A stretch of DNA of 20,000 bases from an uncultured virus (IMG/VR IMGVR_UViG_3300046727_000499) (Duplodnaviria > Heunggongvirae > Uroviricota > Caudoviricetes), in the IMG/VR virus record IMGVR_UViG_3300046727_000499; one strand, given 5' to 3'. Positions within the stretch are counted from its first letter, which is position 1; each line of letters starts with the position of its first letter. The notes below the pieces were generated by a model. That model was not told where the DNA came from, did no database searches, and saw nothing but the letters and a program-made list of their open reading frames with translations. Shown here one piece after another: positions 1,591-18,882 of this stretch. Both the position numbers and the translations under genes were made by a program.

Positions 1591-1607
1591 CGAAAGCGAG
1601 TGACACA

Positions 1608-2870: not shown

Positions 2871-2897
2871 CCTGTTTCGCTAAGTAAGGAGCCATCC

Positions 2898-3137
2898 ATG
2901 GCTGTGACTTCGACATACATGCCGACCACTGGCCCCACAATCATGCCGGGGTCCAGACAGCGTCTGGCTGCCGGGAGTACAGGAAGCGCGGGCGCTCCGA
3001 CTGCCAACGTCACTGGCCTCGGGACCGCCGGTGTCGGTTCGCTCTACACGGACACGACCACTGGCATCCTGTGGATCTGTACTGCCACGGACGGCGCGAC
3101 CACGATCACGTGGACGAAGGTTGGCCTGCAGACGTGA
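2898..3137 (+). CDS. Small virion protein, possible capsid decoration or head fibre (79 aa)
   Basis: AAGGAG RBS at about 2886. Gly/Thr-rich with a GAP...GSLYTDTTTGILW...TW pattern seen in phage fibre or decoration modules; directly follows the capsid gene. Function is inferred. Confidence 0.6.
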   Translation: MAVTSTYMPTTGPTIMPGSRQRLAAGSTGSAGAPTANVTGLGTAGVGSLYTDTTTGILWICTATDGATTITWTKVGLQT

Positions 3138-3250
3138 GTCCCCGCCTCCATGTCGGTCCTGGCCGCGGAGTTCGCGACCCACTGGGTAAACACGAAGCAG
3201 TACGCACGGGCGGGTCGGTAACGATCCGCCAGATCACGGAGGAGACACCG

Positions 3251-3517
3251 ATGTACACGTCTGAAACCGCGATATACGCCGACAGCGAGGGCAACGTCGT
3301 CCCCGAGGACAGCCCCGATGCGGCGATCATGGTGGTTGCCGCCGGCGGCACGATCACGGACGAGGAGGCGGCGAAGTACGGTCTGACGGACGAGAGCGCG
3401 GCGTCCGACGAGGGTGCCGCGTCGAAAGTCGCTGAGCGGTCAGCAGCACCCACCGAAGACAAGGGTCCTGGCCCTGACCCGCAGGCGCCCACCGGCACGA
3501 AGCCCGCCAAGAAGTAG
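3251..3517 (+). CDS. Hypothetical acidic protein of the head module (88 aa)
   Basis: GGAGGAG at 3238-3244 favours ATG 3251 over the ORF-track start at 3071. MYTSETAIYADSEGNVVPEDSPDAA...EEAAKYGL, then a disordered tail. Confidence 0.7.
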   Translation: MYTSETAIYADSEGNVVPEDSPDAAIMVVAAGGTITDEEAAKYGLTDESAASDEGAASKVAERSAAPTEDKGPGPDPQAPTGTKPAKK

Positions 3518-3525
3518 GGTCTCCC

Positions 3526-4068
3526 ATGAGCGTTCCCATCGAGGTCCATGACGCGGTGGTGGCACTGGTTGAGCCGACGCTTGACCCCGTGCTCACCGAC
3601 GCGGAGATCGACGCGGCGATCCTGCGGACGATGGGCTTCCGCACGTGGACGGCGGCGACGACCTACTACCCGGATGTGCTCGTGACGCCGACGGTGCCGA
3701 ACGGGTGGGCGTACGCGCCACTGACGCAGTCACAGGGCCCGTATTGGGCCTATTCGGACCCGAACTTCACGGGCAGTGGCATCCCCGGTGTCTCCGGTGA
3801 CACCGAACCGACGTGGCTGATCCCCGCGAGTAGTCGCAACCCGGCGGCCTACGTGCAGGACGGGACGATCACGTGGGCGGCGGCGGTGCCGACGAACGGA
3901 CCGTACGATGTCAAGCGTGCTGCCGCAGAATGTCTCCGCGCCAAAGCGCGCAAGGCGATGAACCGCGTTGATTCCTCCGTCCCAGGCGCGGTCAGTGCAC
4001 GGGAAAGCCAGATGTATCAACAACTGATGGCCGCGGCCGCGCAGCTGGAACCGGTAGGGCTGTACTGA
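3526..4068 (+). CDS. Head-tail adaptor/connector with an inserted beta-rich domain (180 aa)
   Basis: Helical termini DPVLTDAEIDAAI and YDVKRAAAECLRAKA...SQMYQQLM resemble head-tail adaptors; position after capsid accessories supports this. Confidence 0.7.
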   Translation: MSVPIEVHDAVVALVEPTLDPVLTDAEIDAAILRTMGFRTWTAATTYYPDVLVTPTVPNGWAYAPLTQSQGPYWAYSDPNFTGSGIPGVSGDTEPTWLIPASSRNPAAYVQDGTITWAAAVPTNGPYDVKRAAAECLRAKARKAMNRVDSSVPGAVSARESQMYQQLMAAAAQLEPVGLY

Positions 4069-4069
4069 C

Positions 4070-4441
4070 ATGGTGATACCGTACGTCCCCACCGACCGCC
4101 TCGACCGCTTCCGCGTGCTCGATGAGCGCGCCATGCCTGACACGTGTGACATCGTCTCAGTGGACCCGGGCACCATCAATCCCGATGGCAGTGGCGAGCC
4201 CGGCGAAATCACCACGACGACCGTGCCCTGCCGCTTCCTCGATGCGGCCGGCGCGGCAGAGATCCTGTTTGCGATGCGGCTGACGGTGGAGGCCGGCGGC
4301 ATCCTCTGGGTACCGGTCAGCACGGTTGCCACAGAAGAAGACACCGTGACGTTCAAGGGCGACACCTGGCAAATCGTTGGGACATCGTTGGGGCAAACCT
4401 TTGCCACCAGCCTCCAGCTGGCCGTGAAGTTGGTGGAGTGA
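4070..4441 (+). CDS. Head closure/stopper protein (123 aa)
   Basis: MPDTCDI...TTVPCR...DTVTFKGDTWQIV beta pattern; lies between adaptor and gp10-like gene. Confidence 0.7.
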   Translation: MVIPYVPTDRLDRFRVLDERAMPDTCDIVSVDPGTINPDGSGEPGEITTTTVPCRFLDAAGAAEILFAMRLTVEAGGILWVPVSTVATEEDTVTFKGDTWQIVGTSLGQTFATSLQLAVKLVE

Positions 4442-4776
4442 TGAGCGTCACGATCAGCATTCAGTCGAACGTCACCCCGCTCGATGCCGCCATTGAGCAC
4501 ATGGAACGCATCGAGGAGATCGTGTCGCACTATGCGGGGTTGATTGAGGAACGGGCGAAGACGCTGGTTCCCGTCAAAACAGGCGCGCTTCGTGCTTCGA
4601 TAACCACGCATCTCAATGGACTGGTGGCTGAGGTGACCGCCGGTGAGGGCCTGTCGTATGCCGTTGTCGTGGAGTATGGCGGTCATAATCGCCCTTCCCA
4701 GCCCTTCATGAGGCCAGCCATCGAAGCCTACGCCGACGAGTTCGTCCGCGCGATCATTGCGGTGGTGGGAGGCTAG
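4441..4776 (+). CDS. HK97 gp10-like tail completion protein
   Basis: Characteristic AKTLVPVKTGALRASI, YAVVVEYG and QPFMRPA motifs; TGATG overlap with the previous stop. Confidence 0.9.
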   Translation: MSVTISIQSNVTPLDAAIEHMERIEEIVSHYAGLIEERAKTLVPVKTGALRASITTHLNGLVAEVTAGEGLSYAVVVEYGGHNRPSQPFMRPAIEAYADEFVRAIIAVVGG

Positions 4777-4778
4777 GG

Positions 4779-5225
4779 ATGTCGCTCACAGCCGTCCCGC
4801 GCGCCCTCGACATCCATGCGATTGGCATCGGCATCCGGGCGGCGCTGCTGGCCAACCCGACGATCGTGGCCGCTGTCGGCACGCGCATCTACCCGGACGA
4901 CGATGTGTCGAGCGGCCCGTTTCCCTATCTCGTCTACGCCGTGGTCTCCGATCAGACGCAAGGGTGGTACTCACATGCAGGAGTCAATGACCTCTGGCAG
5001 GTCACCGCCGTTGACCGGCCAGCCGGGCCGGGCTACTCGACGACCGTGGTCTCAAACCTCGGCGCCGCCATCCAGACGGCGCTCCTCGATACCCCATGGA
5101 CCGTCTCCGGCTGGCACCTGACCGCAGTACTGCGCGAGAACACCCGGCCCTACACCGAGAACGAGCAGGGGGTCGTTTTCCGGTATGTGGCCGTGACCGT
5201 GAGAGTTGAGGCCTTCAAGATCTAA
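4779..5225 (+). CDS. Tail terminator (DUF3168-like, 148 aa)
   Basis: IRAALLANPTIVAAVGTRIYP...FPYLVY N-terminus and position after the gp10-like gene. Confidence 0.8.
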   Translation: MSLTAVPRALDIHAIGIGIRAALLANPTIVAAVGTRIYPDDDVSSGPFPYLVYAVVSDQTQGWYSHAGVNDLWQVTAVDRPAGPGYSTTVVSNLGAAIQTALLDTPWTVSGWHLTAVLRENTRPYTENEQGVVFRYVAVTVRVEAFKI

Positions 5226-5236
5226 AGGAGTCCATC

Positions 5237-5389
5237 ATGGCAGAGGACAAAGCAGCCGAGAAGCCAGCGAGCAAGAGCGCGGAGGAGAAGGCAGCAGCGG
5301 ACGCGCAGGCCCACGCCGAAGAGCAGGCGGCGCTCTTCGAGAAGATGCGTGCTGAGGAGCGAGCTGCCCGACTGGGCAAGGCACCGTAA
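5237..5389 (+). CDS. Small 50-aa Ala/Glu/Lys-rich helical protein (not in the ORF track)
   Basis: AAGGAG at 5225-5230, ATG 5237, TAA 5387-5389. Translation: MAEDKAAEKPASKSAEEKAAADAQAHAEEQAALFEKMRAEERAARLGKAP. Confidence 0.75.
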   Translation: MAEDKAAEKPASKSAEEKAAADAQAHAEEQAALFEKMRAEERAARLGKAP

Positions 5390-5421
5390 TCGCTCACCGT
5401 GACGAATCGCTCACCGTGACG
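5388..5421. repeat. Perfect tandem duplication 2 x 17 bp (AATCGCTCACCGTGACG)
   Basis: Copies read directly at 5388-5404 and 5405-5421; each holds the palindrome TCAC-C-GTGA. Confidence 0.95.
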
Positions 5422-5450
5422 TTTAGTTGCATCGCATAGGAGGCGACGTT

Positions 5451-6143
5451 ATGACGTTCCTAACAGTTACGACGGGGGTAGGAGGTGGGATAGGCTGGAT
5501 CCGCGGCGCAACCACGCTGGCGACCGCCGAACCGTGCTCCGCCATTACCGTGCTCTCGGGCAGCCCGACGACGTACCCCGCCAACCAGTGCTTCCGCGTG
5601 ACTGCACGGGCGCATAGCCTGCTCGATCCTCGCAGCCCAACCATCGTCAAGAACGCCACGGTGGCGGCGAAGACGACGGACTACTTCATCAACTGGGGCA
5701 CGGGCGAGATCGTTTTCTACACGCCGCTCACCGGCACGCCGACGATCACCATCGACTGCGGCTGGATCTCCACGGCGACCGGCTCTGACCTGCGTCTCCT
5801 CTCCCACGTCAACAACTGGCAGGAGGGCACGACCGCCGCCCAGATCCCCGCCGATGAGTACGGCACGCGCATCGTCCCCTCGTTCGCGGGCAAGGTGTCC
5901 GGTACGTTCCAGTTCGACTACTACAGTTCGTCGGACATCGTCGATCTCGGCCACGCCCAAAGGCTGAATGGCAACTACTTCGTGTTCGCCCTCTACGAGG
6001 ATGTCGTCACCAACCGGATGCGCATCATCTATGCGAACCTTGGCGGTTTCCCGATCACGGCTCCCGGCGCGGGTATGATAGGCGGCACTCTCACCGGGGG
6101 ACTTATGGCCGATGTTACCTTCAGAAATGAAGTTCTCATCTAG
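5451..6143 (+). CDS. Probable major tail (tube) protein with an N-proximal inserted domain (230 aa)
   Basis: AGGAGG at 5438-5443, ATG 5451. Lies between terminator and chaperone. C-terminal half (VNNWQ...DEYG...GKVSGTFQFDYY) has the beta pattern of siphovirus tube proteins. Confidence 0.7.
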   Translation: MTFLTVTTGVGGGIGWIRGATTLATAEPCSAITVLSGSPTTYPANQCFRVTARAHSLLDPRSPTIVKNATVAAKTTDYFINWGTGEIVFYTPLTGTPTITIDCGWISTATGSDLRLLSHVNNWQEGTTAAQIPADEYGTRIVPSFAGKVSGTFQFDYYSSSDIVDLGHAQRLNGNYFVFALYEDVVTNRMRIIYANLGGFPITAPGAGMIGGTLTGGLMADVTFRNEVLI

Positions 6144-6206
6144 CTAGCTATCTACGATGGCGAGCGGGGCGGCGGGCAGCGTGACACCCCTCCCAATGTC
6201 CTGCTC

Positions 6207-6275
6207 GTCACGAAAATCAGCGGTGTTCACGAAATCGTGTCACGAAAATCAGGGGTGTTCACGAAAAGGGGTGTT
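6207..6275. repeat. Imperfect direct repeats: 2 x 28 bp GTCACGAAAATCAG[C/G]GGTGTTCACGAAA, giving four TCACGAAA boxes
   Basis: Units at 6207-6234 and 6239-6266 differ at one base. TCACGAAA starts at 6208, 6227, 6240 and 6259. AGGGGTGTT occurs at 6251 and 6267. Confidence 0.9.
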
Positions 6276-6277
6276 GT

Positions 6278-6736
6278 ATGTCCGAGAACGGCGCGAGCCC
6301 GAACGGCCTGACGGCGATTGCGCGCCTCAAACAGAAGAGCGAGCAGCGGTACATGCCGCAGCCGCTGCAGATTGACGGCGACACGTACTACTTCCGCCGC
6401 CTCGACGGCTTCCAGGCCGATACGCTCGTCAAGCTGCAGGCGGAAAACCCGAACCTCTCGACGGCGCGCTATGATGCGACCGTGGCGGCAATGGCATTTG
6501 TCAGCGACACGGGCACGCCGCTGACGGCGGACGAGGCGCTGGCGATCGGCGCCTGGTTTTACCAGCCGGCACGGGAGTTCGTGCAGAAGATCACCGGTGA
6601 TTTTCGCGATGAGGCGGCAGTGAAAGCCGCTGAACCCGGCCCTTTTATCCAGAAACCTATGCTCTCTATGGTCTCGCCGCCGCCCTCCACAAAACCGTCT
6701 GGGAAATCCGCGACCTCGTCGACGCCGACCCGCTGA
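6278..6736 (+). CDS. Tail assembly chaperone (lambda gpG-like, 152 aa)
   Basis: Between tail tube and tape measure genes; LQIDGDTYYFRRL N-terminal pattern; contains an in-frame slippery heptamer. Confidence 0.8.
   Translation: MSENGASPNGLTAIARLKQKSEQRYMPQPLQIDGDTYYFRRLDGFQADTLVKLQAENPNLSTARYDATVAAMAFVSDTGTPLTADEALAIGAWFYQPAREFVQKITGDFRDEAAVKAAEPGPFIQKPMLSMVSPPPSTKPSGKSATSSTPTR
6640..6646 (+). promoter_or_regulatory. Programmed -1 ribosomal frameshift site C CCT TTT
   Basis: X XXY YYZ heptamer in the correct codon phase (GGC CCT TTT); the -1 frame stays open to TAA at 6970-6972. Confidence 0.85.
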
Positions 6737-6972
6737 CCTTCAGGCGACACTGTGACTGGTACGAGACCTTCTGCTCGCAGGAGGCCGGGATGGGGATTCC
6801 CGCCTCAGATCCCGCACGCATCTTCGGCATCGGCCTCAAGGCGATGCGTGAGCAGATGCGCACGGCGTTCCCGGAGCCCGAGACGGACGAGCAGCGGGAA
6901 GCCCGCTTCGCGGCGCAGGCCGACGCGCAGGTGCAGGCGAAGTTCGAGGCCGCCAGGCAAAGCCAGGAGTAA
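6646..6972 (+). CDS. Frameshifted extension of the tail chaperone (gpT-like part of a gpGT fusion of about 231 aa)
   Basis: The -1 frame reads YPETYALYGLAAALHKTVWEIRDLVDADPLTFRRHCDWYETF...ARQSQE, with the LA..L..T..E...W pattern of gpT-like segments; it ends 3 bp before the tape measure start. Confidence 0.82.
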   Translation, partial: YPETYALYGLAAALHKTVWEIRDLVDADPLTFRRHCDWYETFCSQEAGMGIPASDPARIFGIGLKAMREQMRTAFPEPETDEQREARFAAQADAQVQAKFEAARQSQE

Positions 6973-6975
6973 CGC

Positions 6976-9900
6976 GTGCCTGATTCCCTCGTCCGGGTAC
7001 AACTGCAGGCGACCGGCGCGGACCAGATCCTGGCGACGCTGCGTGCGGTGCGGCAGGAAGTGGCGCTGCTCGGGCAGCAGAGCGCGCGCATCAACCTGGC
7101 CGCGAACACGACCGTCGTCAACCAGCAACTCGGGCAGGTCACGACCCAACTGACGCGCATCAATGCGATAACGGCACGGGCGCGCGTGGACGTCGATACG
7201 TCGCAGGCCGAGAGCAGACTCTCCGGGCTGGAATCCAAGGTCTCGTCGCTGATGACCGGCACCCTGGCGGCAGCCGGGGCGATTATTGGCGTGCAGATCA
7301 CGCGCGGCATCGGCGCGGCGACCGACGCCATCGTCGGCTTCAACAGCACGCTCGAACAGACGCGCATCGCCTTTACCTCGCTCTTCGGTTCCGCCTCGCG
7401 GGCGAACGACTTCATGGCGCAGTTGCAGGACTTCGCCAAGAAGACTCCGTTTGACTTCGAGGCCGTCAATCACTATGCGCAGCGCCTGCTCGCGGTCGGC
7501 TTCGCGGCAAAGGATGTGATCCCCGACCTGACCGCGATGGGCAATGCCGTCGCCGCCGCTGGCGGCAACTCCGAGACGCTCGACCGCGTGACGCTCGCGC
7601 TCGGTCAGATGCACGGCAGTGTGAAACTGACCGCCCAGGACATGAACCAGCTGATCCAGGCGAATATCCCCGCCTGGCGCTTGCTCGCGGACCAGATCGG
7701 CGTCACCGAGGCGCAGGCGCGGAAGATGGCGGACGCCGGCAAGATCTCCGGCGCGGACGCCTCTGCGGCGATCATTGCCGCCATGAGTCAGCAGAACGTC
7801 GGCCTGATGGACCAGATGTCGAAGACGTTTGCGGGCCGGCTGGAAAACCTCAAAGACACCTTCCGCAGTGAAATGGCGGATCTCGGCAAGCCGCTCTTCG
7901 AGGAGCTGTCGAAGGCGGTCGATCTGGCGAGCGAGGCGCTGGCGTCGCCGAAGTTCAAGCAGGCCGCGCTGGACATGGTCAACGACCTGACGGCCATCAC
8001 GCGCGCCGCCGAATCAGTTGGCACCGCCTTTGGGAAGATCCCGCCCGGCGTCTCCTCCTTCCTCGAGGGCGCGCTCGCTCCCGGCCACGCGCTGATTGGC
8101 GCCATCAAGTCACTGGGGGCCGGGCCCAACCTGCCGGGCATGACCGTCCCTGAACCGCCCGCCGCCGCAGGCGAAGCCCCCGGCGGTGGCGCCGCATTGC
8201 TCCAGCAGCGCGCGGCCACCGGCATCATGACGGACTTGACGAATCAGGTACGCACGGGCGCGATGACGGCCGACCAGGCGCGCCAGCAGTGGCGGGCGCT
8301 CTCCGAGACGTTCGGCGGGCTCTTCGGCAATGCCTCGGATCTCTCGCGCCTCTTCAGCGGCGAACTCAACCAGGCGATCGCGGACCATATCACGCAGGTC
8401 AATGACGCGACGGCCGCGCATGAGCGGTTGCAGGACACGCTCAAGCAGGCGGGCCAGGCCCAGGCACTCGGGGCTTCCTCCGAGGATGTCGGTCGCGCGA
8501 TCTTCGGCATCACGGGCACGGGTGCGCAGGCGACGCCCGAGCAGATCCAGCGGGCGAAACAGGACATTCAGGACCTGACGACCGCCTATCAGCGCGCCGC
8601 CTCCGTGATCGGCACGGTCGATCTCGCGCACGGCATCGCCGGCTTCGCGGCGGTCGCGCCCGACCTCGCCCGCGCCCGTGACAGTCTGCGCGACCTCGGC
8701 CAGAGCAACCAGGCACTCGACAACCTCGCCTCGCTCGCCACCCAGTTCAAGTCCCTCACCGACGCCACGGATGCGGCGACGACCGCGTACCGCGGCTTCA
8801 TGCTCACGCTCACGGAGACCGACCAGAAGATCCAGCAACTGAGCACCTTCCGCGGACAGGTGACGGCCGCAGTCAGCGATGCCGACCGCCGGCGGTCACT
8901 CGGGATTGCCACGCCGGAAGACCTGACGCTGCTCGCGAACTATAAAAATATCCTCGCCAACATCGACACGATGAAGACGGGATTGCAGCGGAACGCCACG
9001 GGCGACATCCTCGGCATCGCGGCGAACTACCCCGACCTGAAGAAGAGCGACGACACGCTGCGGGACATGATCGGCAAGCTCGGCGGCCCGCAGCAGCTCG
9101 AGATCGATGTCAAGACGAACACGGACAAGGCGCTCGAGCAGATCAACGACCTGCTGACGAAACCGCATCAGGCAACGATTGACGTCCAGATCGCCACCCA
9201 TCTGACGGGGCTGCCGCCTGCACTCGCGAACATCATCGCGAGTGCCGCTGGCGCACAAGCGGTGGGAGGGGCCAGCGATGGCGGCTACGCGCGGCCGACG
9301 ACGCAACGCCTGGTCGGCGGCGGCCCGTACGGCAGTGGCACGCTCTATCAACCGGGCGGCGCGATCGGCAGCGCTGGCGGCGGTGGGGCTGGCTGGAACC
9401 AGTTCCAACCGCTCTCGCAGGCACAGTACGGCGGCATCGTCTCCTCCGGGCCGCTGGCGAACCCGCAGGTCTATGCCGGGGTGATGGCTGCGGCGCAGGA
9501 GTACAACGTCGATCCGCGCGCCTTACTCGCCTTCGTCAAAAATGAGGGCGTTGCGCCATCGCTTGCTGCCGTCAACAACTTCGGCGGCATCAAGGGAAAA
9601 GGCGGTCCGGCCGCGCCCGCGAATGAAGGCGGCACCTACGCCGCGTACAGCAGTCCCGCCGATTTCTTCCGCTCGCTGGCCGCGAATCTCACCACCGGCG
9701 CCTACGCGGGCGACTATCAGTCGGGCAATCTCGCGGCCGTGCGCCAGCGGTACGTGGCCGGAAGTGCGACACCGAGCGCAGCGCAGCAAGCGAACATCGC
9801 GAACACCGTTTCCTCCTACAACGACCTCGTGCAGCAATACCCGTCAGGCGCTGGTGGCGTGATCACGCCGCAGGTGCCGGGGTCGTCAACGCTGACCAGT

Positions 9901-12057
9901 CGCGTGTCCCTGACGCAGCCGACACCGATTCAGGCGGGCGCGGGTCAGACGGTAACGCCCAATCAGGTCGCGGCCATGCGCAAGCGTGCGAACGAACTCG
10001 CGGGCAGCGCCTATGTCTACGGCGGCGGTCATTCCAGCCAGGATGCGGGCGGGTTCGACTGTTCCGGCTACGTGATCGAAGTGCTGCGCGCCGGCGGTAT
10101 CAACGCGCCCTTCACCGATGCCGGTGGGCTCTACAAGTGGGCACAGACGGCGGAGGGATCGAAGCTCCTCGACGCCGCGGGCATCCAACTGGGCTTCTAC
10201 AATCCCGGCGCCGGCGGCATGAACGAGCATGTTGGTATTAACATCGGCGGCGACTGGTTCGAGAGTGGTGGGCAGCGCGGCGATACCGCGGGGCCGTCAC
10301 CGAACGCGGCGAAGGGGCTCAACAAGTTCGTCGGCACCCCACACGCCGTCGCGGCCGCAACGGGCGGGGGCATCGCCCTGGCGCAATCGACGGGCGGCGG
10401 GACGAGCGATCTGACGGGTGCCGCCGGTGGTGGTGACCTCGCCAGTATCATCAGCGGTGCGGCCACCACTGCCGGTCGCGCTGGGGCTGGTGCGATCCAG
10501 GGAGCCGGGATCGGCAAGACGCTGGCGAGCCTCAACCCGCAGGACGCGCAGAACACGCTTGCCGCCTATCAGCAGATTCTGCCGATGCTGCGTGAAGCGG
10601 CGAACATGAAATACCCCGAACTGCCCGTGACGGCAGAGAACGAGGCATTGCAGCAAGGTCTGGGCTTCCTCCAGGCGTGGGGTCAGGCGCAGGGCGACAT
10701 TCGCACGGGTGCATCGGGCTTCGCCGACGACATGCAGCGCGTGACCGACATCATCGGTGGGCCACTCGGCGCGGCATACGGCCGCATCCTCCAGGCGCAA
10801 TACCAGTCCGCGCGCATCAACGAGCAGATCGTCTCCACGCAGAGCGCGATCACGCAGTTGGACACCGCCCATCAAGCGACGGTCGATCAGCGGACGGCGG
10901 CGGACCGCGCTTCCGGCCGCCAGCAGACAATGCAGGGCTGGGCCGACCAGGCGTCCGACCAGGCACGGCAACGGCGGCAGCAGGCGGGCGCGCAGGGGAT
11001 TCAGGATGCGCAGAGCGCCGAGAACCGCGGCTACACCGGGGTGACGCGCTCATTCCAGGACCGGCAGCGCGCGTTGCAGTTCTCGCAGCAGGTGCAGGGC
11101 ACCGACCTGCAAAATCAACTGGCGGACCTCCAACAGCAGCAGACGAGAACCGGCTACCAGCGGACGGCGCAGGAGCAACTCGTCTCGGCGCAGGTCAAAG
11201 GCGCCGGCACGAACGAGGCAGCGGCGCAACTGGCGGCGAACCTCGCTGCGATGCATGACCGCGACCTCCTGCAGAAGGACGCGGACACGAAGGCCATCGA
11301 TGATCTGCAGGAGAAGATCCGCCTGCAACAGAAGCAAGCGAATCTCGACTCCTACAATCTGGAGACGGAGCAGATTCAGGCGCAGCGGGCACACGAAGAC
11401 CGGATGGCGCAACTTGACGATCAGGCCACGGCGCAGCAGCGGAACGCCCAGGCGGAGGACGAGGCGATCCAGGAGAGTCGGACCGCACGCGATCAGGCCC
11501 ACCAGATGGAGCTCTGGCAGGTCGAGGATAGCCGTGCCGCCGAAGATGCCGCATACCAGCAGCAAAAGGCGTCGCTGGAGGAGCGACTGACCGGCTTGCA
11601 GGCGGAAAAGCAGGCGCAGGACGACCTCATCACCACACTGCAGCAGATGATCGGGCTGATGGGACAGTTCGGGGACGCCGGCCAGACCGCACTCAGTCAG
11701 CTCGTCTCCGGCACGCAGGGGATGCTGACAGGCGAGTCGAAGGCGAGCCATCCCACGGGCGGCTGGATACCGAAGCTCGCCGCCGGCGGCACCGTGCCGA
11801 TTGGCGGCCAGGCATTCGTCGGTGAGTCGGGCATCGAGCATCTGCTGATGACTCCGAAGGGAGCGGTCGTCACGCCGATGGGGTCGGCTCCTGCTGCATC
11901 GGGTGGTGGGGTCGTCGTCAACATCGGTACGATCAACGGCGGCATGAGCGAGGACCAGATCGCGGACGTGACGCAGCAGTTCAATCAGGCGCTGCGCGAC
12001 GCGGTGCGTAAGGCCGGCACCGCGTCACGCGCCCAGAGCCGCGCACTCGGAAGGTGA
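6976..12057 (+). CDS. Tape measure protein with internal GH73-like muralytic and NlpC/P60 domains (1693 aa)
   Basis: Longest ORF, after the chaperones. Tape-measure N-terminal motifs LEQTRIAFTSLFGS, FAKKTPF, ALGQM and GRLENLKD; internal NNFGGIK and YVYGG...FDCSG...HVGI; Gln-rich coiled coil; C-terminal LAAGG...VGESGIE motif. GTG start with AGGAG RBS. Confidence 0.95.
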   Translation: MPDSLVRVQLQATGADQILATLRAVRQEVALLGQQSARINLAANTTVVNQQLGQVTTQLTRINAITARARVDVDTSQAESRLSGLESKVSSLMTGTLAAAGAIIGVQITRGIGAATDAIVGFNSTLEQTRIAFTSLFGSASRANDFMAQLQDFAKKTPFDFEAVNHYAQRLLAVGFAAKDVIPDLTAMGNAVAAAGGNSETLDRVTLALGQMHGSVKLTAQDMNQLIQANIPAWRLLADQIGVTEAQARKMADAGKISGADASAAIIAAMSQQNVGLMDQMSKTFAGRLENLKDTFRSEMADLGKPLFEELSKAVDLASEALASPKFKQAALDMVNDLTAITRAAESVGTAFGKIPPGVSSFLEGALAPGHALIGAIKSLGAGPNLPGMTVPEPPAAAGEAPGGGAALLQQRAATGIMTDLTNQVRTGAMTADQARQQWRALSETFGGLFGNASDLSRLFSGELNQAIADHITQVNDATAAHERLQDTLKQAGQAQALGASSEDVGRAIFGITGTGAQATPEQIQRAKQDIQDLTTAYQRAASVIGTVDLAHGIAGFAAVAPDLARARDSLRDLGQSNQALDNLASLATQFKSLTDATDAATTAYRGFMLTLTETDQKIQQLSTFRGQVTAAVSDADRRRSLGIATPEDLTLLANYKNILANIDTMKTGLQRNATGDILGIAANYPDLKKSDDTLRDMIGKLGGPQQLEIDVKTNTDKALEQINDLLTKPHQATIDVQIATHLTGLPPALANIIASAAGAQAVGGASDGGYARPTTQRLVGGGPYGSGTLYQPGGAIGSAGGGGAGWNQFQPLSQAQYGGIVSSGPLANPQVYAGVMAAAQEYNVDPRALLAFVKNEGVAPSLAAVNNFGGIKGKGGPAAPANEGGTYAAYSSPADFFRSLAANLTTGAYAGDYQSGNLAAVRQRYVAGSATPSAAQQANIANTVSSYNDLVQQYPSGAGGVITPQVPGSSTLTSRVSLTQPTPIQAGAGQTVTPNQVAAMRKRANELAGSAYVYGGGHSSQDAGGFDCSGYVIEVLRAGGINAPFTDAGGLYKWAQTAEGSKLLDAAGIQLGFYNPGAGGMNEHVGINIGGDWFESGGQRGDTAGPSPNAAKGLNKFVGTPHAVAAATGGGIALAQSTGGGTSDLTGAAGGGDLASIISGAATTAGRAGAGAIQGAGIGKTLASLNPQDAQNTLAAYQQILPMLREAANMKYPELPVTAENEALQQGLGFLQAWGQAQGDIRTGASGFADDMQRVTDIIGGPLGAAYGRILQAQYQSARINEQIVSTQSAITQLDTAHQATVDQRTAADRASGRQQTMQGWADQASDQARQRRQQAGAQGIQDAQSAENRGYTGVTRSFQDRQRALQFSQQVQGTDLQNQLADLQQQQTRTGYQRTAQEQLVSAQVKGAGTNEAAAQLAANLAAMHDRDLLQKDADTKAIDDLQEKIRLQQKQANLDSYNLETEQIQAQRAHEDRMAQLDDQATAQQRNAQAEDEAIQESRTARDQAHQMELWQVEDSRAAEDAAYQQQKASLEERLTGLQAEKQAQDDLITTLQQMIGLMGQFGDAGQTALSQLVSGTQGMLTGESKASHPTGGWIPKLAAGGTVPIGGQAFVGESGIEHLLMTPKGAVVTPMGSAPAASGGGVVVNIGTINGGMSEDQIADVTQQFNQALRDAVRKAGTASRAQSRALGR

Positions 12058-12124: not shown

Positions 12125-13006
12125 GTGCCGTACGAGTTCCGGCCGATCAACATGAGCATGAGCCGTGATTTTGCGCGACGGGAGTCCGTGCTGGTGGTTC
12201 CGGGCGCGGATTCAGTGCTGGACGCTTTCGGCGCCGGCGCCGGCCCGATGGACCGGCGCGATCAATCGTTTTCGTTCCGCCGCTTCACCCACGGCAACAA
12301 TGACGCCGTCTACGATACGCTCGCCGCCTGGCTCGCGCCCGGTCTGCCGCTCCGCCTCGTCTACCAGACCGACCAGTTGGGGCTCTGGTATACCGTCGGC
12401 TACAATCCACGGATCGCGCTGACGGAGACGTCGGGCGGCAACTGGGGCGAGGACGGGTATCTTGACTTCACCATTACCTGGCGCATCCGCCCCGACTGGC
12501 GCGCGCGGTTCAGCGAGGATAGCGAGCGCTTCACCTCCGTCTCCCGCTTCGCCCCCGGGACCGTCTTCGGCGGGACGGGGACGATACCGATCACCGCGAA
12601 CCCGCAGGCGATCTCGATCGATGCGCGCGGCACGGCGGGCCTCGATCTGCCCACCCTCCCCGACACCGGCGCAACGATCTCCGTGCATGGGCCGGTTGGC
12701 GGCAGTCTCGGCTTCCGGGTGACCAGTTTCTCCGCTTTCGCCGTCGATGCGTCGGGGACGAAGCAGCCACTGTACTTTGACGTGCCGTTCCCGCTGCCGC
12801 TCGCCACTGACAGCGTCACGCTCAACTTCGCGTCGCAGACGTTCCTGCATAACGGTGCGCCGTTTCGGCCGGTCAAGCCCGCATATCAATCGCACTACTG
12901 GGAGATCGCGCCCGGTGTGCTGAACGGTGGTCAGGTCGCCGCGCTCGGCACGTCCCCCCTGGTGGGCGGGCTGATCCGCTTCTCGTGGTTCCGTAAGCGC
13001 GCATAG
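12125..13006 (+). CDS. Probable distal tail (Dit-like) minor tail protein; start uncertain, possibly 12068
   Basis: Directly after the tape measure gene, about 300 aa, beta-rich, ending ...WEIAPGVLNG...IRFSWFRKRA like many Dit proteins. Family assignment is inference. Confidence 0.65.
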   Translation: MPYEFRPINMSMSRDFARRESVLVVPGADSVLDAFGAGAGPMDRRDQSFSFRRFTHGNNDAVYDTLAAWLAPGLPLRLVYQTDQLGLWYTVGYNPRIALTETSGGNWGEDGYLDFTITWRIRPDWRARFSEDSERFTSVSRFAPGTVFGGTGTIPITANPQAISIDARGTAGLDLPTLPDTGATISVHGPVGGSLGFRVTSFSAFAVDASGTKQPLYFDVPFPLPLATDSVTLNFASQTFLHNGAPFRPVKPAYQSHYWEIAPGVLNGGQVAALGTSPLVGGLIRFSWFRKRA

Positions 13007-13121
13007 TGGTTCACCGCATGCCGATCCTTGCCCCTTTGCACGAGACCGTGTCAGTGCGGTTCGCGGCAAAGGGGCAAGGATGTACCGCTACGAAGACGGT
13101 CACATGCATGCGGTGAACCAC
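13006..13121. other. 116-nt nested inverted-repeat element, a predicted three-way-junction RNA or DNA cruciform
   Basis: GTGGTTCACCGCATGC (13006-13021) is the exact reverse complement of 13106-13121. ATCCTTGCCCCTTTGC (13024-13039) is the exact reverse complement of 13066-13081. A third short hairpin lies at 13082-13103. Confidence 0.85.
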
Positions 13122-13141
13122 GGAGAGGACGAGGCACCATC

Positions 13142-14548
13142 ATGCCCATGAGTTACGCTTCGGCGGGTGTGGTCGCACCCGCGAACGCGACCGACAACTC
13201 GTTCGTCTTCTTCAAGGCGACATTCGATCATATCTTCGGCGTCTTCAACAGCTTCGAGACGGCGAACAATGCCGCACTCGCGACGACGAACAGTAACGTC
13301 GCGGGGAACACCTCGAGCATCGGCACGATCAACACGCTGCTCGGCACGCGCACCGCGGCCGCGTCGGCGAACTCGATGATGATGCGCGACGCCAACGCGG
13401 CCACCGCGCTCGGCGGCCTCTCCGTGGTCTCCACGCAGCCGGGCGCCGCGACCGTCGTGCTGCGGCCGATCAGCGGACAAACCTTCCCCCTCGTCACGGT
13501 GCAAAACGCGGCGGGCACGGTCAACACCGCCTATATCGGCTTTGATGGCTCATTCACCTCGACACCCGGCTTTGTGGGCGACCTCGCGGGCAATGCCACG
13601 GGCGTCAAGGGGATCGCGGCACACGCCCTGCTCGTCGGCGCCGGTGCGGGCGCCATGGCCGCACTGCCGCCTGGGTCCGCGGGCTATGTCCTGACATCGC
13701 AGGGAGCGGCGCTCGATCCCGTCTGGTCCGCCCCGACTGGCGGCAGCGGCGGCGGCGGAACGGCGTCCACGATCACGACGGGCGGCACCGGCGATGCGTC
13801 ACTGATTGACATCACGACGCCGCTCGTCCAGAACGTCGTCAACGCGCTCTCCGTCACCGGCGGCACGAGTCTGCAAATCGCCGCCAGCAGTAGCACGAAG
13901 CTCGGACTCTCGGTCGGCGGGCGCTGGCGCACGAATACCGCGAACGCGACGACGAACGCCGTGTCGGGCGGAGCCGGGAACCGCTATCTGGTCGCGGACA
14001 TCTCGGGCGCGGTCGTCGGTGGCAACGGCATCGCCTTCTCGCTGAATACCACAGCAACGCTGACGAACCAGTACCAGTTGCTCATCTGCGCGGTGCGCTG
14101 GGATGGCACGACGCTGCAACTCGATGCCTCCACCACCGACTTCACGAATCTTGTGCCGACAATCAACTCGACCGGCTTTCTCCCCGCCGTCCTCGCACAG
14201 GATTACACCGCTGGCGCGCTGACGAACGCGGGCTTTCAGAACCTGGCGAATGGCATCACCACCACGCTCCATTTCCCCACGGCGCTGCGCGGACTGATCG
14301 TCTTTAGCTTCGATCTCGCGCAAGGCGCAGCGGCACAGAACGGCTATCTCTATCTCAGTGTCGATGGTGGACTCGTGGGGAAAAACGTCCAGTTCAACGG
14401 CGTGCCAATCAATCAGACGCTGACGCTGACCGGGCAGCTGCGCGTCTCGCTCGGTGCGGGTGCACATACGTTCGTCGTGCAGGCATTTTGCGGCACGGTC
14501 GGCCCGACGGTCGGCGCGGTCAGCGTCAACGGCTTCTTCTATCGGTAG
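13142..14548 (+). CDS. Tail fibre or receptor-binding-like minor tail protein (468 aa)
   Basis: GAGG RBS before ATG 13142. Gly/Ala/Thr/Asn-rich; fibre-type segment LPPGSAGYVLTSQGAALDPVW, a Gly linker, and a C-terminal beta domain ending LGAGAHTFVVQ. Confidence 0.7.
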   Translation: MPMSYASAGVVAPANATDNSFVFFKATFDHIFGVFNSFETANNAALATTNSNVAGNTSSIGTINTLLGTRTAAASANSMMMRDANAATALGGLSVVSTQPGAATVVLRPISGQTFPLVTVQNAAGTVNTAYIGFDGSFTSTPGFVGDLAGNATGVKGIAAHALLVGAGAGAMAALPPGSAGYVLTSQGAALDPVWSAPTGGSGGGGTASTITTGGTGDASLIDITTPLVQNVVNALSVTGGTSLQIAASSSTKLGLSVGGRWRTNTANATTNAVSGGAGNRYLVADISGAVVGGNGIAFSLNTTATLTNQYQLLICAVRWDGTTLQLDASTTDFTNLVPTINSTGFLPAVLAQDYTAGALTNAGFQNLANGITTTLHFPTALRGLIVFSFDLAQGAAAQNGYLYLSVDGGLVGKNVQFNGVPINQTLTLTGQLRVSLGAGAHTFVVQAFCGTVGPTVGAVSVNGFFYR

Positions 14549-14559: not shown

Positions 14560-15633
14560 ATGACCATGACGCGCATCGACCAGACGGACGCCAGCGTGAC
14601 CCTGGGTGGCGGACACTGGGGCACCGCCGTCGCGGACGCCAATGCTGTCGGTGGCACCTACGCACGCACGACCACCAATGGTGACACGGCGACCATCGTC
14701 ATCCCGGCCGGTCCTTCGACGGCGATCCTCCAATGCACACGCCTGTCGACCGGCGGCGCGCCCACGATTGTCAACACGACGCTGGGCAGCGCGCCGGTCA
14801 CGTGGGATCAGACGAGCGGCACGAACAATGCCGCCGCCGGCTGGGTCGTCTCGAAAGCTTGCAGCCCGCCGATTGCCCTCAATCCCGCGGTCCCGAACAC
14901 GATCGTCGTCACCGCAGCCGGTGGCGGGGCGACGCTTGATGCCTATGAGAAATACACGCCGTCCGCGATCACGGCCGGGCGCTTCACCGTGGCCGGGCAC
15001 TCGATCACGCAGGGCGCGTTCATCACCAGTCCGACGACGAACCGCTTCACCGCCCTCGCCGCAACCTGGCTCAGCATGACGGAGGACAACACCGGGACAG
15101 CGACCGGGGCAACGCTCGCCGATAACAATCAGGCCGCGTCCCCGGTGCCGCTCTGGACGATCATCCATGTCGGCACGAACTGGGATCAGCGCACACCGGA
15201 AATTGCCTGTTGCATGATCGGGATCAACGACATCTCCACCCTGCTCGCTGCTGACCCGACGCCGGGCTACTACCTCGCCCTCTTCAAGCAGCGCCTGCGC
15301 GAGTTGACCTGGCGGATGAACTACAGCGTGCCCGGCTGCCTGGTGCTCCTCGTCAGCATGACGCCAAACACCAACCTAGGCGGCGCGGTGACGCAGGCGA
15401 ATATCGTCGCCTTCGACCGCGCCATTCAGCAGGTCGCCCTCGAGCCAACGATGACGAACTGCCTGTACGTCAACTGCTGGGATGCGCTCAACACCACCAA
15501 CTACGCATCGGCGGCGATCCTCTCGGACGGGACGCACCCGACCATCTACGGGCACGACCTGATGGCGCGGGCGCTGTTCAAGCAGGTCGCGGCGCGGCGG
15601 GCGTCGCCGGCCGCACTGCGGTTGGTTGCGTGA
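14560..15633 (+). CDS. SGNH/GDSL-family esterase with an N-terminal beta-sandwich domain (357 aa)
   Basis: AGGAGG at 14547-14552, ATG 14560. Block I AGHSITQG, block III MIGINDI, block V DGTHPTIYGH. Confidence 0.85.
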   Translation: MTMTRIDQTDASVTLGGGHWGTAVADANAVGGTYARTTTNGDTATIVIPAGPSTAILQCTRLSTGGAPTIVNTTLGSAPVTWDQTSGTNNAAAGWVVSKACSPPIALNPAVPNTIVVTAAGGGATLDAYEKYTPSAITAGRFTVAGHSITQGAFITSPTTNRFTALAATWLSMTEDNTGTATGATLADNNQAASPVPLWTIIHVGTNWDQRTPEIACCMIGINDISTLLAADPTPGYYLALFKQRLRELTWRMNYSVPGCLVLLVSMTPNTNLGGAVTQANIVAFDRAIQQVALEPTMTNCLYVNCWDALNTTNYASAAILSDGTHPTIYGHDLMARALFKQVAARRASPAALRLVA

Positions 15634-15653
15634 TGTTGGAAAGGAGTTTGCAT

Positions 15654-15986
15654 GTGAATCCTGCCCATGCTGCCCAGCGGGCGCCCGCACCCGAGACCGT
15701 TACATCCTTGGCGGCTTGCCGCGAACCGCTCCAAAACGAGGTTAGGCGCCTGTCCGAGGATGAGTTGTGCTACCACCGGAGGGTCGTCGCGGCAGTGCAG
15801 GAAGCACGGCAGCGATTGGCGCTCGCGGAGGCAGTGGGGAGCGCGTGGTTCGCGCACCTGATGGAGCGCTACGGGCTCGCCGAGACCGATGTCGTCGAAG
15901 TCGATGGCGCCATCACGCGCGTGTCCGCACCGCGGGACGCGCGTGTAGTGCGCGACACGGCATCGCCGTCTCCAAAGAAAGGCTAG
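15654..15986 (+). CDS. Hypothetical helical protein (about 110 aa), possibly a fibre assembly chaperone
   Basis: AAGGAG at 15641-15646 favours GTG 15654; fills the gap between the SGNH gene and the next tail gene. Function unknown. Confidence 0.55.
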   Translation: MNPAHAAQRAPAPETVTSLAACREPLQNEVRRLSEDELCYHRRVVAAVQEARQRLALAEAVGSAWFAHLMERYGLAETDVVEVDGAITRVSAPRDARVVRDTASPSPKKG

Positions 15987-15989
15987 CAG

Positions 15990-18308
15990 ATGGCGCGGCT
16001 GACCTGTTGGACGGTCGGTGCGAACCCGGTCCCGCTCCTCACCTGTGTCGGCGGTACCGTCGTCCTGACCGAAATCGACCAGTTCACCGCGCATGACCTG
16101 GAGTTCGCGGCCGCCGATGCGCGCACGATCCAGGCGATGAAGGAATGGACCCTGCTCGAACTGGTGCAGGAGGGCGTCGGCACGATCGGCTACGGGTACG
16201 TCGTCAATCCCCGCCAGAGCGTCAGCGACCAGGGCGCGGGCACCATCCGCGTCAGCCTCGAGCAACTGACGCACGAGTTGACCTGGCACCGGACGCGGCG
16301 GGGCTGGCAGGCACAGAACAACATCTCGATCGTCCAGGCACGCCTCGCGGCGCTGGCACCCGGCTGGACCGGCGTCTTTACGGACCTGTACACGGTGGAC
16401 CCGCAAGGGAACCCGCGCGATCTCACCGTGCAGGTGACACTGAACAACCCGACCGCACTCGGCGGCTATCTGCAACTCGCCCAACAGTTCTCACAGCATG
16501 CGCGCCTCGGCACCCTCGTCGATGCGACCGGCAACCCGGCGCGCATCCTCGAGATGGGCCAGTTCGGCGCCGCCCCCACGGTGACCTTGCAGGATGCGAA
16601 GGGTGGCGATCTCGACGCCATGGGGCGCAACACGACCATGCGCGTCCCCGCCAGCGTCGAATGGCAGCCGAACAATGTCGAGGACTTCTGCAACGTCACG
16701 GTGCCATTTGGCGGCGGGCAGGACACGGATTCACTCGTCACGCTGGAACGCCTGTGGCGGATCATCAATGACCCCGCCTACCCGGATGTCGGGCGGTACG
16801 GTTCCGATGCCGACTCGACGGCACGCACGGGGAGGGCGAGCCTGTTTCCTGAGTACGATCCCGCCTATCCGATCACGGACCCGGAGCATCCGCCCACGGG
16901 CACGATTCAGTATGACGCGCAGGGGAATCTCCTCCAGGGGGCGTACAACACGCGCGGCGTCACCCTCGACGGGCACTATGACTACATCGTCTACGATGCC
17001 GCCAGTTATGCCACCTACGGGCACAAGGAGACCAAAGACTATATCGATTCATCGCTGACCTACCCGTCCGCGGATCCCGCCGATCAGGTCTACACCGCGC
17101 GCGCTCTCTATGTCTCGGTGGTTGGGTTCTTCAAACGCTACGCGCACCCGCATCACGCCTTTACGTGCACCGTCAACGATGCGAACACGCTGCCGACACG
17201 CGCGGGCGACCTGGTCGCCACGGATTTCCAGCACGTCTCGGTGGCCGAGAACGCCGCGGTCGTGGAGATGAACATCACCGAGAGCATGCGGGTGATGCAG
17301 GTGACGCGGGCGTTCAACGGTGATGATCCCGCAGTGGACACGTACACCCTCTCGAATCTCGGGCGCTTTGATGCGACGGACGCCACGGGTGCGGCGGATA
17401 CCGCGCAGACGATCGTCGCCTTGCAGCGGCAACAGGGAACGGGCCTGGCTCCGTATACGCGCGACTTTGCGGGCAACATCGATGTCGCGAACCCGATCAC
17501 CGTGTCCATCTACGTGCCGCAGTTGCATTTCCGCTGGCACGAGTTCCGGGTGCAGTGCGACTGGCTCCCGTTTCGTGGCACGGCGACGACGGCACACACC
17601 ATCCAGGGATCGCCGATCGTCACGGTCGGGGCCGTGGAAATCCTGATCGCGACGCCAGCGGACATCAACGCCGTCGCCGCGAATATCGGCGGTATCCCCG
17701 ATCACGTGCACGGCATGGCGGTACTCGGCAACACACGGGCCTTCACCATCTCTAGCACGCCTGCCACGATCTCGCCAAATAACTACCTCTGGGTCGGCGG
17801 ATCGGGAACCAATCTGGTGCTGAACGCGAACAGCCTCACCGGCACGCTGTACACCGGCACGCCGCCGGGCAGCCATCAGCAGGTCAATCTCGATCCGACC
17901 GCGCATCCGCACGTGGTCAAGAAGCAGGGGGAAACGGTGGGCCACCTTCCGGCGGGGACGGTGATCGGCCCCGTACCGGACCACGCGCATGACGTGGAGA
18001 AGCGCATCCCCACCGGGCAACCCGCCCCTGCGTCCATCACCCTGACGATCAATGGGGTCAGCCTCTCCTCCGGTGCCTCGGTGCAGGGGACACGTGACCC
18101 GCTGCTTGGCAACGCATTCACGTCAGCCTTTGTTGCCAATGACATCTCGGTGGAGATGGAGGCGGCCGGGAGGCCGGGATCGGTCGTCCCGCTCCGGTTT
18201 GACGCGGGCACGAGCGCGGGCAATCCCTTCGGGGTGGGTTTCCTGCAAATCTCGGTGACTGCGGTGGAGGAACTCGGCGGCCTGGCAAGCACCTTCCGCG
18301 CATCGTAA
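15990..18308 (+). CDS. Large minor tail protein, probable baseplate hub (Tal-like) or central fibre (772 aa)
   Basis: Size and position; hub-like NVTVPFGGG and RAGDLV...MRVMQVTR segments; C-terminal domain with three HxH motifs. Confidence 0.7.
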   Translation: MARLTCWTVGANPVPLLTCVGGTVVLTEIDQFTAHDLEFAAADARTIQAMKEWTLLELVQEGVGTIGYGYVVNPRQSVSDQGAGTIRVSLEQLTHELTWHRTRRGWQAQNNISIVQARLAALAPGWTGVFTDLYTVDPQGNPRDLTVQVTLNNPTALGGYLQLAQQFSQHARLGTLVDATGNPARILEMGQFGAAPTVTLQDAKGGDLDAMGRNTTMRVPASVEWQPNNVEDFCNVTVPFGGGQDTDSLVTLERLWRIINDPAYPDVGRYGSDADSTARTGRASLFPEYDPAYPITDPEHPPTGTIQYDAQGNLLQGAYNTRGVTLDGHYDYIVYDAASYATYGHKETKDYIDSSLTYPSADPADQVYTARALYVSVVGFFKRYAHPHHAFTCTVNDANTLPTRAGDLVATDFQHVSVAENAAVVEMNITESMRVMQVTRAFNGDDPAVDTYTLSNLGRFDATDATGAADTAQTIVALQRQQGTGLAPYTRDFAGNIDVANPITVSIYVPQLHFRWHEFRVQCDWLPFRGTATTAHTIQGSPIVTVGAVEILIATPADINAVAANIGGIPDHVHGMAVLGNTRAFTISSTPATISPNNYLWVGGSGTNLVLNANSLTGTLYTGTPPGSHQQVNLDPTAHPHVVKKQGETVGHLPAGTVIGPVPDHAHDVEKRIPTGQPAPASITLTINGVSLSSGASVQGTRDPLLGNAFTSAFVANDISVEMEAAGRPGSVVPLRFDAGTSAGNPFGVGFLQISVTAVEELGGLASTFRAS

Positions 18309-18319
18309 GGAGCGAGGGA

Positions 18320-18601
18320 ATGGACGCCAGCGTCGCCCTGATCACGACCCTCGGCGCGATCGCGGTGGCGCTGATCTCCGGCGGCTTCGCCTTCGCCACA
18401 CAGCGCGGCAAGGGCAGCGGCGATTATCTGCGCGAGCGGATCGCCGTCCTCGAAGCGCGTGAGGACACCACCCTCGCACCGCTCGTCGCCGCGGTGCAAA
18501 GCCAGCAGGACTCGATCGCGCAGATCGCCCAGCTGGTCACGACGGTGATGGATGAGATTCAGTACCGACGCCGGCGCCAGCAGGAAGGGAGCGATGACTG
18601 A
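18320..18601 (+). CDS. Membrane protein with N-terminal TM helix and coiled coil, holin-like (93 aa)
   Basis: AAGGAG/GAGGG RBS; hydrophobic VALITTLGAIAVALISGGFAFA, then a heptad-like region; lies between tail genes and the lysin. Confidence 0.6.
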   Translation: MDASVALITTLGAIAVALISGGFAFATQRGKGSGDYLRERIAVLEAREDTTLAPLVAAVQSQQDSIAQIAQLVTTVMDEIQYRRRRQQEGSDD

Positions 18602-18882
18602 TGGCCGCATTCCTGAACGTCGCGGAACTCCGGCTCGTCGCCCTGTATCTCGCCACGATCGCGAGCGCCGCCGTCATCGGCTTCCTGGTCGCGCGTTCGA
18701 TCAACCGGCAGCAACGGCGTGCCGCGGAGGTCGACGCGGTGCAGCACATCATCGAGGCGGACAAGCGACGGGAAGAGGCGGAAGCGCTCGCCCGCACGAG
18801 CGAGGCGCAGCAACAGCGGTTAGGACGCGTGATGAAGGGGAAGGCTGGAGATGAACACAAGGCAGATTCCCAGCATCGATGA
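18601..18882 (+). CDS. Second membrane protein with one TM helix and a charged coiled coil, holin or antiholin-like (93 aa)
   Basis: TGATG overlap with the previous gene; hydrophobic LVALYLATIASAAVIGFLVA followed by an Arg/Glu/Gln-rich helix. Confidence 0.55.
   Translation: MAAFLNVAELRLVALYLATIASAAVIGFLVARSINRQQRRAAEVDAVQHIIEADKRREEAEALARTSEAQQQRLGRVMKGKAGDEHKADSQHR

Follow-up and report, generated by a model that had tools for sequence, protein, structure and literature searches.

What kind of DNA fills the spacer between two adjacent tail-module genes of an uncultured tailed phage with two long and perfect stems? The DNA examined here, a 20,000-nt stretch of the IMG/VR record IMGVR_UViG_3300046727_000499 (Caudoviricetes; its whole length is referred to below as the window), carries at positions 13006 to 13121 a 116-nt element. 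The original prediction, made from the sequence alone, described this element as a single three-way junction and offered two explanations for it, an undescribed structured phage RNA or a mobile insertion resembling miniature transposable elements with inverted repeats (MITEs) or repetitive extragenic palindromic (REP) hairpins, known as REPINs. The evidence presented here favors mobile DNA. With a probability of roughly three in four, the 116-nt “three-way junction” is two copies of one gene-less, hairpin-forming mobile DNA element, one nested in the other, and belongs to a family of such elements in a clade of soil phages.

The sequence and an inverted-repeat scan bore out both stems (Table 1), each with 16 perfect Watson-Crick pairs. 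As described in the prediction, the element begins on the last base of a TAG stop codon (13006), abuts GGAGAGGA at 13122, and has no U-tract, there being no run of T residues after the 3′ arm. As RNA, the 116 nt have a minimum free energy (MFE) of -76.5 kcal/mol, compared with -39.2 ± 3.3 kcal/mol in 200 shuffled sequences (z = -11.25), none of which was as stable; as single-stranded DNA, the + and - strands fold at -48.2 and -47.1 kcal/mol, respectively (z = -11.0 and -10.6). The apical mini-hairpins and the third hairpin are all present in the MFE structures, which confirms the predicted fold. However, the structure consists of two elements, referred to here as A (outer) and B (inner), and its third hairpin is the remainder of the loop of A. 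The motif of A runs forward on the + strand, and its loop is split by B into positions 13022-13023 and 13082-13105, with B sitting two bases inside this loop in the opposite orientation. Both were matched by the nhmmer profile of the family (13081-13120, E = 3.9e-6, for A; 13030-13074, E = 1.6e-9, for B), and B alone folds as DNA at -25.2 kcal/mol (z = -7.4). The swapping of partners between the apical hairpins, which had been noticed in the sequence, is real; it is possible because the loops of A and B are the same family motif in opposite orientation and hence complementary.

One unit of the family is 53 to 59 nt long and consists of a 15-bp perfect inverted repeat around a conserved, bulged loop. 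The loop (23 to 28 nt; consensus CGYGTACCG-N6-CGGTCACRY) is the most conserved part of the unit and folds into two helices, of 3 and 4 bp, that are separated by a single bulged base, and a 1x2 internal loop; the 4-bp helix covaries as well. The stem sequence varies from copy to copy, with tips TGG...CCA and a loop-side end ...TGC/GCA...; read inward from position 15, the three tip bases are T in 44, G in 40, and G in 36 of the 57 distinct copies that were aligned outward from the loop. In the same alignment, stem positions 1 to 15 (855 cells) comprise 850 Watson-Crick pairs, no G.T pairs, and 5 other mismatches. Pairing drops past position 15 (position 16 is paired in 35 of the 57 copies, position 17 in 7, and positions 17 to 24 in 7 to 24), and the stem therefore has a sharp limit of 15 bp. 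Since pairing is fixed for 15 bp across the family and extends to position 16 in only 35 of 57 copies, the outer element proper occupies positions 13007-13120. The 16-bp terminal repeat starting with GTGG that had been proposed is thus an inverted repeat indeed, but the repeat of the family has 15 bp and TGG...CCA tips.

Covariation was assessed over the full 23-pair structure in a 56-sequence alignment (51 distinct rows), with 500 shuffles and slid-partner controls. Paired cells made up 97.0% of the total, compared with 70.5% in the shuffles, none of which reached the observed value, and 30 to 42% with slid partners. Both sides had changed in 17 of the 23 pairs. Compensatory changes, which the prediction had named as a check, are strong, with 275 doubly changed cells against 75.7 expected from the shuffles; changes on one side only were found in 3 of 1173 cells. 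In two copies in viral record G006 (13717-13795 and about 47395-47485; loci L132 and L134), the apex is much extended and contains a small GC-rich hairpin of a different kind, which may be a second, even smaller type of nested element.

Apart from one mismatch, the window is identical to a 40,368-bp viral record (G001) where the two overlap. Positions 1-10212 of the window correspond to G001 30126-40337, the window crossing the ends of the record, and the two together close into a 40,337-bp circle (9800 of 9800 bases identical in the wrap-round); in IMG/VR, G001 is listed as linear and 56% complete. A combination of the inverted-repeat scan and the nhmmer profile identified 14 family copies in this genome, all at E <= 3.9e-6, which add up to 772 nt, or 1.91% of its length. 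Two of these copies form the 13006-13121 nest, and the other twelve are found amid early and replication genes, from 26.7 to 33.1 kb. They include a second nest, at 27963-28076, of the same subtype and with the same loop position and relative orientation as A and B. Most copies are found at gene ends or starts, and nine are in the forward and five in the reverse orientation, with all genes being on the + strand; the orientation is defined by the loop alone, the arms being alike on either strand. These copies, together with others in viral and metagenome contigs, support a mobile repeat, the outcome that the prediction had attached to a search for dispersed copies.

Larger collections were scanned with the exact pattern of the main loop type only, so that minor types, including that of element B, are under-counted in the following numbers. 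In IMG/VR viral contigs (about 30), there were 51 loop-pattern matches, of which 45 have perfect stems of 14 to 17 bp, 5 have stems with one mismatch, and 1 is not a member of the family. In JGI metagenome contigs, 18 of the 94 matches have stems of at least 13 bp, 3 have a perfect run of 6 to 12 bp, and 73 have neither. None of the 46 matches in 185,579 bacterial and archaeal species genomes (one per species) has a stem of more than 5 bp; this collection serves as a negative control and suggests that the family is absent from cellular genomes. Stemmed copies in the metagenome contigs occupy 17 loci, one of which holds two copies. At 11 of these loci the flanking ORFs (open reading frames) encode phage-type proteins and no housekeeping proteins; they include RecT (twice), Phd/Vut_1 as in G001, helix-turn-helix regulators, a serine-recombinase zinc ribbon, and HNH.

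The dozens of family members in independent viral and metagenome contigs make a chance palindrome or an assembly artifact exceedingly improbable. All that speaks for such an explanation is the general risk of foldbacks in short-read assemblies. Against it, none of the 200 shuffles folds as well as the element, the stretch is complete in three DNA runs (which may be the source sample), and the 5′ arm was found in a contig of a fourth DNA run.

Evidence of mobility comes from comparisons with related phages: for 6 of the 14 copies, at least one relative lacks the element at that site, and the whole 13007-13119 nest is among those missing. The absence of the nest is seen in a 400-nt contig of a relative from X7, one of two RNA-library runs (X4 and X7) that contain contigs of relatives, which are no evidence of transcription or of RNA ends: position 13006 is joined to 13120, with 7 other letters replacing the 113 nt. 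This contig has 42 differences over 388 aligned bases (about 89% identity) and retains the stop codon and the ribosome-binding site. The copy at 28835-28893 is missing from G003, leaving an exact 57-nt difference within the RecT-like ORF (with a 2-nt AT ambiguity at the empty site), and G009 is devoid of the copies at 27009, 27227, 28635, and 28835, its RecT region being 114 nt shorter. Near-identical copies, with their arms included, are found at non-homologous sites in G009 (96%), G019 and G021 (95%), G003 (91%), and G004 and G005 (89%). G001 itself carries two 100% identical copies (16621-16853; locus L012), in direct order and 176 bp apart, around the 5′ half of a small ORF, and the second of these alters the frame of the last ~30 codons of that ORF relative to G009. 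These two identical copies are a mark of recent activity.

Some copies reside within genes. The RecT-like ORF of the same locus L012 (G001 17879-18877, equivalent to window coordinates 28091-29092 and so outside the window) contains two in-frame copies in the linker that follows the RecT domain; the C-terminal part of the protein is conserved in G003 and G009 despite the absence of these copies there. At metagenome locus L187, a different copy occupies the equivalent position in the RecT ORF. Small ORFs and the 3′ end of the gene that precedes recT hold further copies, which likewise keep the frame.

Nesting is not confined to the window, either. The spacer of phage G023 that corresponds to 13006-13121 contains a triple nest, with the same insertion spot and relative orientation as those of B in A, and more nests are present in G023, G004, and G006. 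The three unambiguous nested junctions (G023 inner2, G023 at 23391, and G004 at 8800) restore the host loop with no duplicated bases. Nesting was not counted as a sign of a target preference for loops, which may simply be one of the few places in a compact genome where an insertion does no harm. The idea that the arms are copied from the target, raised by the resemblance of 8 nt at the G003 empty site to the inner arm, was ruled out as a rule by the 89 to 96% identical copies, arms included, at unrelated sites. On the whole, the dispersed copies, the empty sites in relatives, and the nesting agree with the MITE/REPIN-like insertion of the original prediction; what had to be revised was the length and tips of the repeat and the number of elements, two and not one.

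Could these hairpins instead be functional RNAs, such as T7-like RNase III sites, terminators without a U-tract, or 3′ stabilizers, that spread over the genome by duplication and persist through selection on RNA structure? The very stable fold, the strong covariation, the location of most copies at gene ends or starts, and the presence of nests in the same tail-gene spacer of two distant phages all fit this proposal. Furthermore, the RNase III sites of the T7 type are palindromes that resemble each other and are scattered over phage genomes, according to an excerpt of PMC11707656. However, the copies are split 9 to 5 between the two orientations in a genome with a single direction of transcription, even though the loop is their most conserved part, and frame-keeping copies are found inside the RecT ORF and other ORFs. 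RNA helices tolerate wobble pairs, whereas the stems have 0 G.T pairs in 855 cells against 5 non-wobble mismatches, and changes on one side alone are limited to the 3 of 1173 cells mentioned above. Close relatives are missing individual copies, including the entire 13006-13121 nest. Finally, the Rfam search that had been suggested as a check (positions 12700-13400, E <= 10) returned no family at threshold; it produced only sucC (16.1 bits; threshold, 50) and tRNA-Sec (15 bits; threshold, 47). The sub-threshold sucC match (E = 1.7) aligns the outer loop, at 13065-13106, with the 3′ part of the sucC motif and is probably due to chance.

The dedicated structured RNA of the original prediction (RNase III site, stabilizer, or switch) is not supported by these comparisons, and selection on RNA hairpins is quite improbable as the origin of the family. 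The loop orientations, the lack of wobble pairs, the in-frame copies in ORFs, and the different copy at the same RecT position support a constraint that acts at the DNA level, equally on both strands, rather than on the transcript. An incidental effect of the hairpin on the mRNA of the tail gene is possible, since the hairpin ends 1 nt before the ribosome-binding region.

A constraint that is symmetric on both strands, with a loop motif conserved regardless of orientation, is also compatible with functional sites in DNA. These might be binding or cleavage sites for phage proteins, recombination “linkers” at module boundaries that serve the RecT annealase and the VRR-NUC nuclease of the phage, or decoys for hairpin-sensing host systems. 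RecT and a VRR-NUC nuclease are encoded where the copies cluster, VRR-NUC homologs are present in G003, G006, and G023, and a block in which G001 and G003 are highly identical is flanked by two copies. Genes for RecT and VRR-NUC are widespread in phages, though, which makes them weak evidence, and both the number and the positions of the copies differ between close relatives. In a small ORF, one recent copy has changed the reading frame from that of G009, and copies pile into each other, as expected of selfish DNA and not of sites that are needed at fixed places. DNA-level functional sites are accordingly considered unlikely.

Several observations weigh against a mobile hairpin. The empty sites are unpolarized and could be deletions, and the junction of 13006 and 13120 has 7 unrelated letters in place of a clean joint. 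The corresponding tail-gene spacer of phage G023, whose flanking gene product is just 46% identical in amino acids, contains a nest as well; this could reflect a hot spot or a useful structure long retained by selection, and it is the latter that would count against mobility. Many of the carrier contigs are related and only a few habitats are represented, so the copies are not all independent. No mobilizing enzyme emerged: PF01797 (RAYT Y1) was found in 0 of 5 carrier records, compared with 6 of 14 control genomes, there were no transposase-like ORFs among those scanned in G001, G006, and 11 metagenome loci, and no longer element bounded by matching half-sites was detected in 7 genomes. In addition, stem arms as variable as these are atypical for transposon ends.

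Neither Y1 HUH nor rve DDE domains were found in the 5 carrier records, and no nuclease-gene cassette was seen between two copies; those half-sites that had no partner nearby proved to be parts of other nests or of copies whose apex contains an additional small hairpin. The VRR-NUC nuclease is common to G001, G003, G006, and G023, often with recT genes adjacent, a weak lead only, as both are common phage genes. A search for relatives with the RecT domain retrieved only 3 distant loci. Two other candidates were rejected. A rolling-circle initiator was considered as the mobilizer, but the replication protein matches only a PHROG replication-initiation family and no Pfam family, and its translation resembles, by eye, a replisome organizer without an HUH motif. 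An IS200/IS605-like rule is contradicted by the lack of a fixed flanking tetranucleotide in 45 oriented copies and by two copies of one subtype that occupy the same loop spot in opposite orientations.

If the hairpins are mobile, the element would move as folded DNA, either as a single-strand hairpin or as an extruded cruciform. An enzyme supplied in trans would recognize the conserved, bulged apex and act 15 bp away, at the base of the stem, and insertion would proceed without target duplication. Perfect stems could be kept while their sequence drifts if imperfect copies stop moving or if one arm is corrected against the other. At the locus in question, A would have landed in the short spacer that separates the stop codon of the first gene past the tape measure gene from the ribosome-binding site of the tail gene that comes next, and B would then have entered the loop of A; any effect on tail-gene mRNA, such as that of a very stable hairpin located immediately upstream of its ribosome-binding site, would be incidental. 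An intriguing, if doubtful, possibility is that the family represents a phage-native transposon that moves as a folded hairpin and is neither of the HUH/Y1 nor of the DDE kind, with the structure-specific VRR-NUC nuclease of the phages and the RecT annealase, working together, as candidates for cutting 15 bp from the apex and pasting into unpaired spots. Transposition of this sort would explain the stems of fixed length and free sequence, the absence of target duplication, the two recurrent positions of insertion into loops, and the absence of the family from cells.

The features of the locus are listed in Table 1. The window encodes the structural module of a tailed phage, in which a prohead protease, a major capsid protein, and a 1693-amino-acid tape measure protein are followed by the two ORFs that flank the nest. 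The labels “Dit-like” and “tail fibre” given to their products in the original prediction agree with the position after the tape measure gene; they are positional only, as the 293- and 468-amino-acid proteins each have 0 Pfam and 0 PHROG family matches. The former is 46% identical to its homolog in G023, and no relatives of its gene were found in IMG/VR. The capsid protein is at most 36% identical to those of cultured phages, and the sequencing runs in which the stretch is found come from soil and rhizosphere metagenomes. When positions 12700-13500 and the element itself were compared by BLASTN with 50,697 phage records, there was no match beyond 7 chance ones, each of at most 34 nt, in Klebsiella phage genes.

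Table 1. Features of the hairpin nest and its surroundings (window coordinates)
Feature	Position	Strand	Remarks
Upstream ORF, 293 aa	12125..13006	+	Dit position, immediately past the tape measure gene; stop codon TAG 13004-13006 (ORF list)
Outer hairpin element A	13007..13120		Perfect inverted repeat; arms 13007-13021/13106-13120, plus an extra 16th pair 13006/13121
Inner hairpin element B	13024..13081		Arms 13024-13039/13066-13081; loop 13040-13065, motif reverse
Ribosome-binding region	13122..13134	+	Purine-rich, GGAGAGGA then GAGG; 1 nt past the hairpin base; belongs to the next gene
Downstream ORF, 468 aa	13142..14548	+	Tail-module gene; from ATG 13142
Decayed family remnants	15636..15760		5′ arm and loop start at ~15636-15660; B-type copy with degraded 3′ arm at ~15704-15760

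The decayed remnants were recognized by a 41-nt, 78% complementary match to 13047-13087 and by weak nhmmer matches at 15710-15734 (E = 0.026) and 15637-15657 (E = 0.35). A 118-amino-acid ORF (15630-15986), located between a GDSL-domain gene and a 772-amino-acid gene, begins within these remnants. Only the C-terminal part of its product has homologs, in G003 (50% amino acid identity) and G023 (37%), and in G023 two intact elements lie just upstream of the homologous ORF. Elsewhere in the window, the tape measure protein (6976-12057) has an NlpC/P60 peptidase domain at residues 1010-1095. The region that precedes its gene contains a tandem pair of 28-nt direct repeats (6207-6266; 96% identical), which follow a 238-amino-acid gene, and, 360 nt downstream, their 25-nt inverted partner (6589-6613).

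Among known systems, the closest parallels are offered by short palindromic elements of bacterial chromosomes. REPINs are gene-less hairpins that form replicating units, are mobilized by RAYT Y1 transposases, and attain high copy numbers in bacterial chromosomes without target duplication. The phage element resembles REPs and REPINs in being a short hairpin without genes in which the whole hairpin is the replicating unit, in occurring in both orientations without target duplication, and in keeping its pairing while the sequence drifts. REP and REPIN sequences carry GTAG or CGTC tags at their ends, as stated in an excerpt of PMC3733652, whereas the phage element has no such tag at its ends and its flanks are not conserved. 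It further differs in having a conserved apex and a variable stem, in the absence of a RAYT/Y1 gene from the 5 carrier phage records, and in being found only in phage contigs, with 0 of 46 motif matches in 185,579 prokaryote genomes having a stem.

MITEs are small, non-coding, dispersed elements with terminal inverted repeats of 10 to 15 bp or more that depend on an enzyme acting in trans (PMC11602168, excerpt). The size of the phage element (53-59 nt), its lack of genes, its 15-bp inverted repeat (850 of 855 pairs being Watson-Crick), and its dispersal all fit this description. However, the target-site duplication of 2 to 10 bp that is typical of classical MITEs is absent at the 3 unambiguous nested junctions, the repeat sequence is not conserved beyond the tips, and no parent insertion sequence with the same ends was found in the carrier phage records or, for half-sites, in 7 genomes. 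The excerpted text of PMC11602168 also describes transposable elements as rare in phage genomes, where they are thought to be quickly purged, and phage MITEs as mostly shared with hosts. The hairpin family, unlike these, has no host copies in the collections searched.

Other comparisons are more distant. Rickettsia palindromic elements, which are longer and reside in a bacterial chromosome, are palindromic selfish DNA that survives in frame within coding genes, as do the two copies in the RecT linker and those in small ORFs; the copies of the phage element, in contrast, are mostly intergenic and located in phages. Fungal mitochondria contain tiny GC-rich palindromes and double hairpins whose insertion into spacers, into genes, and into one another is precise. 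Their behavior is similar, but their sequences and hosts are unrelated to those of the phage element. The attC sites of integrons have a conserved core at the base of the stem and a variable apex and are accompanied by an integron integrase; in the phage element this arrangement is reversed, with a conserved apex and a variable base, and the scanned ORFs of G001 include no integrase. The RNase III sites of T7-like phages are scattered between genes as palindromes that resemble one another, span about two helical turns, contain an internal loop, and also form hairpins in single-stranded DNA (PMC11707656, excerpt). The phage element differs from them in its two orientations, absence of wobble pairs, presence in ORFs, empty sites in relatives, and nesting.

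No description of this hairpin family was found in the full-text literature searched, whose scope excluded most subscription journals. It is classed here as a phage-restricted family of hairpin elements, with REPIN/REP and MITE as its nearest kinds; the defining features of these that were looked for and found lacking are a GTAG/CGTC tag, a RAYT gene, a target duplication, and chromosomal copies.

A 40-kb phage with 14 copies of an element of which none was found in the cellular genomes searched points to selfish DNA that persists and propagates in phages themselves. This DNA reshapes phage proteins, as in the two in-frame 19-codon insertions in RecT, and adds very stable hairpins beside ribosome-binding sites. 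Its perfect palindromes are DNA on which hairpin-sensing host systems, as described in an excerpt of PMC11707656, can act. The combination of a variable but perfect stem of fixed length with a conserved, bulged apex provides a concrete substrate for finding the mobilizing enzyme. More generally, what looks like a striking “multi-branched RNA structure” in the spacer of a phage can be no more than a nest of elements of this kind.

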